Virus record (IMG/VR): IMGVR_UViG_2737471845_000014
Span: 1-22,360 of that record
DNA: 22,360 nucleotides
Origin: a virus
Lineage: Duplodnaviria; Heunggongvirae; Uroviricota; Caudoviricetes
Strand: one strand, 5' to 3'
The position numbers and the translations under genes were made by a program. How positions within the stretch are numbered: position 1 is the first letter of the stretch; each line of letters starts with the position of its first letter. This document shows, in pieces, positions 10,028 through 10,812 of the stretch. The notes beneath the pieces are model-generated. The model saw only the letters and a program-made list of their open reading frames with translations, was not told the DNA's origin and searched no databases.

Positions 10028-10040
10028 TATGTCACAGTGC

Positions 10041-10469
10041 TTAGCGATGCTTCAGAAACTTAATCAGCGTGTTAAGGCTGGGAAGAATTTCTGCGGGAGT
10101 TTTGATAACCGGAACAATCCGCCTGTCTTCATAGAGCTCACTAGCTTTCAGTGCGTTAAAAAAGTTATCTACGGCTTGTTGGTAACTTCGTGCTTGTCTG
10201 CTGCTCAGGTGAGGGCGCAGTCTTCTGAAATCGTCTCTGGATATATGTGGCATATCCCGTTTTCCGTCTCGGCAACCCTCGCGGAAGGCGTCAAGGATCA
10301 GGAACAATTCATCAGCGACGGCATTGAACTCTTTCCGCTTATCTCGATTTTTGGCAAGCCAGTGTCCGAGCCAGGCGCCAAGTCCAAAAGCACTAACCGT
10401 CCAGATGAAGGTAACAAGGCGCGGGTTGGTATTGAACAGAAGAACAAACTCACTCCAGATGATTCCCAT
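10041..10469 (-). CDS. Hypothetical membrane-anchored protein (142 aa), antisense to the early-right operon
   Basis: ATG at 10469 (GGAG upstream); N-terminal TM helix (LVTFIWTVSAFGLGAWLGHWLA) plus a soluble domain; fewer rare codons than the fully overlapping plus-strand ORF 10029-10775, but that ORF has a strong GGAGGTG RBS, so the strand call is uncertain. Confidence 0.4.
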   Translation of the reverse strand: MGIIWSEFVLLFNTNPRLVTFIWTVSAFGLGAWLGHWLAKNRDKRKEFNAVADELFLILDAFREGCRDGKRDMPHISRDDFRRLRPHLSSRQARSYQQAVDNFFNALKASELYEDRRIVPVIKTPAEILPSLNTLIKFLKHR

Positions 10470-10812
10470 AATTTCTGGCGACTCCTTTTTGTTCAGGTAG
10501 CGGCATTTCTTGTTGCATTTCCTGTTGGTGCTTATTTCAGCATGCGGGCAAATCTTCGCAATGACTGGCGTAAGCATATCCAGAAAGGAAGACGCCTGAA
10601 AGTACCCGTACTGGCTATGTTCTCCATCACAGGCATCAGCGATCGCATTAAACCTCGATCTTGGCAGATATGGGAACGGAAGCATTGGTTTCAGGATATG
10701 CGGATATGCCATGGGATCGAGGCTGCTTATAGGGATGCATGGCTCTGGAAAAAGCGCGTAACTGAGAAGTGCTGAACCGTGATCCCAATAATTTATCCGT
10801 AAGGAGGTATCA

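Follow-up and report, generated by a model that had tools for sequence, protein, structure and literature searches.

The window analyzed here, a 22,360-nucleotide (nt) stretch of DNA (IMG/VR record IMGVR_UViG_2737471845_000014), is a chromosomal segment of Escherichia coli that carries a prophage, and the region is near-identical to the Stx2e phage phiP27. Just downstream of the cro-like gene of this prophage, two long open reading frames (ORFs) lie on opposite strands. Comparison of the locus with its homologues suggests that it is probably a dual-coding cassette, in which the gene of a 142-amino acid (aa) protein, termed SMP, is nested antisense and codon for codon inside the gene of a 248-aa protein, termed the partner. 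As far as sequence comparison goes, the data indicate that both overlapping frames are maintained by selection, an arrangement that is rare in bacteria and phages.

Coordinates are positions in the window, and minus-strand genes are written from high to low. A sequence-only reading of this DNA had described a plus-strand ORF with an excellent ribosome-binding site, coupled to cro, that overlaps a long minus-strand ORF. Both were found, the plus ORF at 10029–10775 (248 aa) and the minus ORF at 10041–10847 (268 aa). The ATG of the plus ORF (10029–10031) does follow a Shine-Dalgarno (SD) sequence and lies 1 nt past the TGA of cro (10025–10027). The Trp and Cys residues to which the same reading had drawn attention number 8 and 6, respectively, in 248 aa. 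An internal ATG of the minus ORF, at 10469–10467, opens the C-terminal 142 codons, and the resulting SMP gene occupies 429 nt wholly inside the 747 nt of the plus ORF. The two frames are in register, every minus codon being the reverse complement of a plus codon, and the other four frames across the overlap contain 7–19 stops. Public annotation of the locus is in conflict. The phiP27 entry annotates the minus ORF as L13, a protein of 223 aa, whereas the RefSeq pipeline PGAP annotates the plus ORF only, in five complete E. coli genomes with the cassette, and starts it at the ATG at 10047 (WP_136759491.1). The start of L13 is probably wrong; the 223-aa annotation arises because, in the phiP27 lineage only, the minus frame is open for 126 codons upstream of the SMP ATG.

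Homologues of the plus ORF are 38%–62% identical and all about 248 aa long. Nearly all lie directly after a cro-like gene and one lies after an ORF6N gene, and in every one of them a minus ORF of ∼142 codons is also open, with its start (MGIIWSEF...) and its end (...KHR, then the stop) conserved. The sequence-only reading had looked to synonymous-site conservation on a single strand for a decision between the frames, and the outcome was split: third-position freedom lies on the minus frame up to ∼10449–10469 and on the plus frame beyond (codon-position diversities in Table 1). The switch of the selected frame coincides with the ATG of SMP (10469). The same picture was obtained from larger sets of 30 SMPs (diversity at SMP codon positions 1/2/3 of 0.43/0.33/0.57), 20 long tails of the partner (0.32/0.25/0.48 at plus codon positions), and 11 short tails. 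By this pattern of third-position freedom, selection acts on minus-strand coding as far as 10469 and on plus-strand coding past that point. The earlier supposition that one of the two ORFs is a shadow of the other was accordingly not upheld, since the ∼100 codons of the tail are under plus-frame purifying selection and the first ∼145 codons of the plus ORF, though their content is set by the minus gene, are free of stops in all lineages examined. For the 268-aa minus ORF, it is the C-terminal 142 aa that stand as genuine. The N-terminal 126 codons are a shadow, because outside the phiP27 lineage every homologue has 1–3 stops in the minus frame across 10470–10847, with the SMP ATG conserved.

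That the plus frame matters over SMP is seen in codons that are absent. Within the overlap, only TTA, CTA, and TCA codons of SMP read as stops in the plus frame. Thirty-one distinct SMPs, retrieved purely by SMP homology and with 37%–100% aa identity to the SMP of the window, make up the nested clade. None of the 31 contains any of these codons, among a total of 481 Leu and 243 Ser codons; the codon usage of the long ORFs flanking each locus predicts ∼190. Most telling is a low-GC lineage (38% GC), in which flanking genes use TTA or CTA for ∼60% of Leu, and the 18–19 Leu of each SMP are encoded by TTG, CTT, CTC, and CTG only; the probability of finding no antisense stop is 1e-7 to 1e-11 per gene. 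When the clade is reduced to 16 lineages of 43%–74% DNA identity, no antisense-stop codon is found against ∼94 expected. The joint probability would be ∼1e-51 if the lineages were independent and 1e-18 with a flat 10% background; because they ignore the shared ancestry of the sequences, which weakens the case, these values are upper-bound illustrations, and the low DNA identity and partner-less controls mitigate that problem without removing it. Those controls are 23 SMP relatives that lack the partner, among them one from an E. coli prophage, one from Serratia, and one from Balneolota; they carry 2–10 TTA, CTA, or TCA codons each (mean 5.8). The avoidance is frame-specific, since the other plus frames are full of stops. 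That the plus frame is open in every clade member retrieved by SMP homology is thus more than chance, and on this comparative evidence selection is keeping it open over SMP in every lineage of the clade. The plus ORF also does not behave as a shadow: it stays intact in both of its genomic contexts and in loci with as little as 37% SMP identity, and its ATG and SD are conserved.

A 120-aa relative of SMP on a 55%-GC contig (L062, 3998–4420) is likewise without antisense stops and is overlapped in register by a 138-aa ORF, which ends in a short hydrophobic tail 19 codons beyond the SMP start. As the protein has just 8 Leu and 4 Ser, chance could account for this case (P ∼0.5).

The sequence-only reading had taken the 142-aa part of the minus ORF for a genuine membrane-anchored protein. 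Family homology and an AlphaFold2 (AF2) model bear this out, and the N-terminal hydrophobic helix is likely a membrane anchor. A phmmer search with SMP against 1.84 billion representatives gave 64 matches, mostly full-length at 120–145 aa, the best full-length ones reaching an E value of 1e-57. A profile search collected 58 proteins, from Enterobacterales to Balneolota and a metagenome-assembled genome of Desulfobacterales, all of them called hypothetical, with one named "L13" after phiP27. Family members have in common the N-terminal hydrophobic helix and, after it, the motif GHWLAxxRDRRKEFN. In the alignments, N49 (alignment A1) or F48 (alignment A3) is invariant, and G31, G35, R42, and L135 are nearly so; a few family members match phrog_34525. 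The AF2 model, built from 35 sequences, has a predicted local distance difference test (pLDDT) score of 90.9 and shows a long helix that includes the hydrophobic segment, followed by a small helical domain. Hydropathy of this helix (KD19) is 1.32 in the window and 1.8–1.9 in relatives. The start and stop codons of SMP are conserved across homologues, and its SD site, AAAAGGAG, is kept at the same position in most of the long-tail group. Judged by its homologues, SMP is an old, independently existing family that is under purifying selection at this locus.

SMP can also be mosaic. When compared with 10041–10330 of the window, four loci (L006, L007, L014, and L056) carry a different juxtamembrane and C-terminal module (YGDKRA..RYRLDKFNAVSDPIE...) on the same N terminus, and the SMP of L014 has in addition a 5-codon deletion. 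The partner frame is open through all of these module exchanges.

The partner begins outside SMP and ends well beyond it. In most loci its ATG lies 2–6 codons outside the SMP stop, a few having longer N-terminal extensions, and is usually 1 nt past the stop of the upstream gene; an SD-like motif precedes it in nearly all related loci. Within the overlap, all partner variants have a hydrophobic stretch followed by a small-x-small motif (VRA/Q or VNA/E), which in the window is the signal-peptide-like segment of residues 46–62. This segment may be a by-product of a hydrophilic SMP helix on the other strand. The tail contains a transmembrane (TM) helix (residues 152–170, nt 10482–10538, KD19 = 2.09), after which the long basic form continues with the motif WQIWEQRxWFxDM...AYRDxWxWKK. 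In a second clade, the basic tail is shorter and reads ISPRILAKRKRWMKLH...PRKTFCQWLWF. In the predicted topology, the N-terminal helix would anchor SMP with its C-terminal domain in the cytoplasm, and the partner would have its tail in the cytoplasm and residues ∼63–150 in the periplasm. In IMG/VR, the long tail is always accompanied by SMP (19 of 19 loci). No conserved in-frame start with an SD was found ahead of the tail across the related loci. A recurrent GTG or ATG 36 codons before the tail was considered as an internal start and rejected, being merely the antisense of a conserved His codon of SMP.

The pair is found behind many different cI alleles, which are 26%–100% identical, with the cI-like gene 210–445 nt upstream of the pair in related loci. 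In four loci, the pair lies inside a Mu-like tail/baseplate module, where SMP is again antisense to the operon and is overlapped in register by an ORF of 152–196 aa. The partner of the tail module begins with a classical signal peptide (MKNIK...LPCSA/Q) at the site of the hydrophobic segment in the window partner, and two of the four end in a tail homologous to the short tail. By these comparisons, the SMP/partner pair is a mobile cassette that moves between phage modules. Some partner-less SMPs directly follow a repressor gene and share its strand, a divergent cro-like gene lying beyond; this position beside the repressor is that of lysogeny-expressed accessory genes.

The simplest reading of the cassette is that ribosomes would start at the cro-coupled ATG, read through SMP antisense, and make the tail, so that the first ∼145 residues of the partner would be overprinted on SMP. 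Several observations weigh against two functional proteins in the overlap. Codon-usage and third-position GC scoring within the window, the check proposed by the sequence-only reading, fails to separate the frames, and the more typical codon usage that it saw in the minus frame is not clearly evident: the overlap has log-odds of 0.109 on the minus and 0.083 on the plus strand, both of which fall between real genes (mean 0.244) and ordinary in-register antisense frames (mean −0.149, maximum 0.011). Scans of both ORFs against Pfam, PHROGs, and PADLOC gave no matches. The AlphaFold model of the partner has a pLDDT of 41; residues 1–143 are all below 50, with 23–42 in the N-terminal region, and are modeled as disordered. 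No aa-level selection was detected on the first ∼145 residues of the partner, the ratio of SMP diversity at position 2 to that at position 1 being 0.75 in nested and 0.76 in partner-less genes, in a test of low power, as frames in register leave almost no sites that are synonymous in both genes. The N-terminal part of the partner may thus have no function of its own, and a frame that is merely open, with no aa-level constraint, is what would be expected from overprinting on an older gene.

These same features could be explained if translation of the plus frame were selected only to keep ribosomes coupled. Insertion of an antisense moron into the pR operon would otherwise leave ∼430 nt untranslated and exposed to Rho-dependent polarity or to stalling by head-on collision; the ORF would then deliver ribosomes to the tail, and the first ∼145 residues would be a functionless by-product. 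Such a ribosome bridge is a variant of the dual-coding reading rather than its opposite, and as an explanation it is the weaker one, possible but on balance improbable. The missing aa-level constraint in the overlap and the low pLDDT of residues 1–143 fit it, as does the orientation of the partner, which always runs along the surrounding operon, be it early-right or tail module. A second plus ORF of the window (506 aa, 11523–13043), which starts 2 nt past the Rha stop, also spans a minus-strand toxin-antitoxin cassette, as bridging would predict; this ORF, however, decays in close relatives and is absent in relatives of 72% identity, which indicates that bridging is not generally selected. By its pattern of decay the 506-aa ORF behaves like a decaying shadow extension and provides an internal contrast to the partner. 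A bridge also leaves unexplained the hydrophobic signal-like segment in all partner variants, the genuine signal peptide at the N terminus of the tail-module partner, and the movement of the pair as a unit together with the tail.

The two readings that retain a single gene in the overlap fare worse. SMP might be the only gene there, with the plus ORF above it a shadow and the tail a separate small gene that starts at an internal or non-canonical codon. Overlap selection is indeed visible on the minus frame, phiP27 was annotated in this way, and long shadow ORFs arise most readily in antisense frames that are in register. Such an arrangement is nevertheless very unlikely given the complete lack of the ∼190 expected antisense stops in 31 sequences, compared with 2–10 per gene in the 23 partner-less relatives, the lack of a conserved in-frame ATG, GTG, or TTG with an SD ahead of the tail, and the conservation of the ATG and SD beside the cro stop. 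The opposite possibility, that the plus ORF is the sole gene, as in PGAP, and the minus ORF its shadow, has in its favor the greater length, strong SD, and translational coupling to cro of the plus ORF, which gene callers choose in nine protein clusters and in five of five E. coli genomes with the cassette. Yet it would have to account for third-position freedom on the minus frame, for the many other contexts in which SMP occurs alone, opposite a closed frame, for the contrast in AF2 pLDDT between SMP (91) and the N-terminal region of the plus product (23–42), and for the conserved ATG, stop, and SD of SMP, and is extremely improbable.

For the dual-coding cassette, gene position and a known phage system suggest how expression might be arranged. 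As the sequence-only reading had envisaged, SMP is placed antisense within the rightward early (pR) operon. In the lysogen, pR would be off and SMP would be made from its own promoter in the 3′ part of the partner gene, as a lysogeny-phase moron; some of the partner-less relatives, as noted, have a repressor gene just upstream. Upon induction, pR transcription and coupled translation would cross the cassette in the opposite direction, and the opposing transcription would silence SMP by transcriptional collision and complementary RNA while the partner is produced. Only one of the two products would be made at a time, and the partner may antagonize or replace SMP. Taken furthest, the cassette would be a self-contained mobile lysogeny/lysis switch, in which SMP is a membrane exclusion or defense protein made by the prophage and the partner, overprinted on it, its membrane-bound antagonist or replacement. 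This proposal is speculative and rather doubtful; it would explain why the two are never separated, as they share nucleotides.

The nearest proven parallel to this arrangement is the Tha/Ith antisense "noncontiguous operon" of Staphylococcus aureus phage 80alpha, in which an overlapping antisense gene encodes the product that turns off a defense protein expressed in lysogeny (PMC11087260). Both loci combine a prophage lysogeny gene with an overlapping gene on the opposite strand, and mutually exclusive expression in lysogeny and lysis was demonstrated there and is proposed here. The two are unrelated in sequence. The antisense gene of 80alpha is small and lies within the cI operon, and its function and transcripts have been demonstrated; in the present locus, known from its sequence, the overlap is a whole 142-codon gene in register and both products have predicted TM-type helices. 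From this analogy and from gene position we infer a lysogeny/lysis strand switch, and that basis itself tells against placing much weight on it. The geometry of the Tha/Ith type is present, with SMP antisense within the pR operon and on the cI strand, and no promoter for SMP was found in a scan with the sigma-70 consensus. The spacing of 12 nt between the SMP SD and ATG is long. A Foldseek search of the SMP model against the PDB and BFVD returned only L13 of phiP27 itself. Scans of 27 SMP members with Pfam, PHROGs, and PADLOC gave stray weak matches and no informative family, and the curated models of anti-phage defense, superinfection exclusion, and toxin-antitoxin systems in these three collections had no significant match in either protein.

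Other searches for control signals at the locus were similarly unproductive. An SMP promoter embedded in the tail might show as extra synonymous constraint over the first 150 tail nt; 9 sequences gave such a trend, which was not clear in 20. A promoter candidate picked by eye (TTGCGA-18-AATAAG, 10560–10531, minus strand) has a −35 element that is not conserved in homologues and is not claimed. A terminator scan of the locus found no convincing one.

Long antisense overlaps in prokaryotes and phages are contested; annotation pipelines forbid them, and the published cases are mostly expression-based. They have been little studied even in viruses (PMC8227390, PMC7457138). Those proposed in bacteria, nog1/citC, pop/ompA, laoB, ano, and asa in E. 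coli O157:H7 and olg1/olg2 in Pseudomonas aeruginosa, rest mainly on RNA sequencing (RNA-seq) and ribosome profiling (Ribo-seq) (PMC7457138, PMC7103648, PMC5810103, PMC8850804). The present pair resembles them in having a long ORF antisense to a protein gene, an overprinting origin, and one member suppressed by annotation pipelines. Most of the bacterial cases are reportedly young in taxonomic terms. In contrast, the evidence here is comparative, from stop avoidance across lineages of 43%–74% DNA identity, the nested gene is the older of the two, and the cassette is mobile. The locus therefore offers an evolutionary, frame-specific case with a natural control group in the partner-less relatives. 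Among viruses, the very few antisense overlaps that reviews list as validated experimentally are HIV-1 ASP and HTLV-1 HBZ, and no phage example is given in the review that treats them (PMC8227390, section 14). These too are viral antisense protein genes that overlap a sense gene, and ASP is also a membrane protein, but they belong to retroviruses and are unrelated in sequence. In phage lambda, the Rz1 gene lies entirely inside Rz, on the same strand in the +1 frame, and the two membrane proteins are functionally linked and co-expressed. The SMP/partner pair shares with Rz/Rz1 the nesting of phage membrane-protein genes; it is not of that type, as the inner gene is on the opposite strand and is probably expressed at a different time. 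Ordinary in-register shadow ORFs have the same frame relation, and the minus extension upstream of SMP is one of them, but they decay with divergence, as the 11523–13043 ORF does, and the partner ORF does not. A literature search found no published description of the SMP/partner pair.

The register of the two frames provides a clean genetic handle, in that changes of Leu codons can be silent in SMP and nonsense in the partner. If the strand switch is real, temperate phages can tie a lysogeny function to its lytic counterpart beyond the reach of recombination, and a new player would stand beside the immunity switch of a Shiga-toxin phage family. The switch would then be a phage analogue of Tha/Ith with both activities on the same nucleotides.

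Table 1. Features of the SMP/partner cassette and of the adjoining genes in the window
Feature	Position	Strand	Remarks
cI-type repressor gene	9032–9763	− (same strand as SMP)	HTH_3 and Peptidase_S24; Pfam and PHROG matches; LexA-type
cro-like gene, 75 aa	9800–10027	+	First of the rightward operon; assigned by position; phrog_4749 (unknown function)
Shine-Dalgarno GGAGG of partner	10018–10022	+	6 nt before the ATG; overlaps the end of cro; read from the sequence
Partner ORF, 248 aa	10029–10775	+	Contains the whole SMP gene antisense; cro-coupled ATG; open in 31/31 clade sequences
Partner hydrophobic, signal-peptide-like segment, residues 46–62	10164–10214	+	VIYGLLVTSCLSAAQV, then RA/Q; KD15 = 1.53
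Partner tail	10470–10775	+	TM helix and basic Trp-rich C terminus; part under plus-frame selection
SMP gene, 142 aa	10041–10469	−	N-terminal hydrophobic helix, GHWLAxxRDRRKEFN juxtamembrane motif, helical domain; real part of phiP27 L13
SMP Shine-Dalgarno AAGGAG	10482–10487	−	Inside partner coding sequence; 12 nt before the SMP ATG
N-terminal 126 codons of 268-aa minus ORF	10470–10847	−	Shadow of partner tail, noncoding; 1–3 stops per homologue outside the phiP27 lineage
Pairwise diversity per codon position, 9 homologues	10029–10449	+	Positions 1/2/3 = 0.51/0.28/0.38; wobble on minus frame
Pairwise diversity per codon position, 9 homologues	10449–10775	+	Positions 1/2/3 = 0.24/0.17/0.41; wobble on plus frame
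Rha/antirepressor-type gene	10813–11520	+	Next in the rightward operon; Pfam Phage_pRha, phrog_63

Next to the cassette in the prophage, the cI gene and the cro-like gene face each other; genes at the cro position of homologous loci match P22_Cro/YdaS. The interval between cro and rha is variable among prophages and is a swap site (window 9763–10813 compared with L003 and L004). It is empty in the cassette-free L004, where rha overlaps the cro stop directly, and holds an unrelated 97-aa minus-strand gene in L003; in L005, an extra 155-aa minus-strand gene lies between cro and the SMP/partner pair. Just past cI, on the same strand, is the gene of a 222-aa protein with two HTH_19 stretches (8260–8928).

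Downstream of rha, the 506-aa ORF runs antisense across genes for a helix-turn-helix antitoxin and a Gp49/RelE-like toxin (11735–12043 and 12033–12362, both on the minus strand). It is open in E. coli relatives at 86%–91% DNA identity and broken in some close relatives, and its residues 302–489 match Phage_ASH and pRha. Three Rfam matches above the gathering score lie on the plus strand at 12438–12514, 12539–12626, and 13094–13170, two to isrK (61.3 and 57.7 bits) and one to C4 antisense RNA (82.8 bits), and they share sequence with a stretch scoring as a Phage_ASH domain. The region resembles a P1 immI-like RNA control region, upstream of and partly within Ash/Rha-type genes.

The left end of the window (103–4368, including the prophage integrase gene) begins with host genes, cmoB/cmoA-like methyltransferase genes followed by a DUF72 (yecE-like) gene without a start. 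The latter is short of about the first 21 profile positions and abuts the prophage integrase gene (3055–4368, minus strand), which is consistent with integration of the prophage into that gene. The left arm of the prophage also encodes an SPFH/Band-7 protein (5505–6332, minus strand), and four clustered tRNA genes (Met-CAT, Lys-TTT, Thr-TGT, and Gly-TCC) lie inside the prophage at 19701–20010 on the plus strand.

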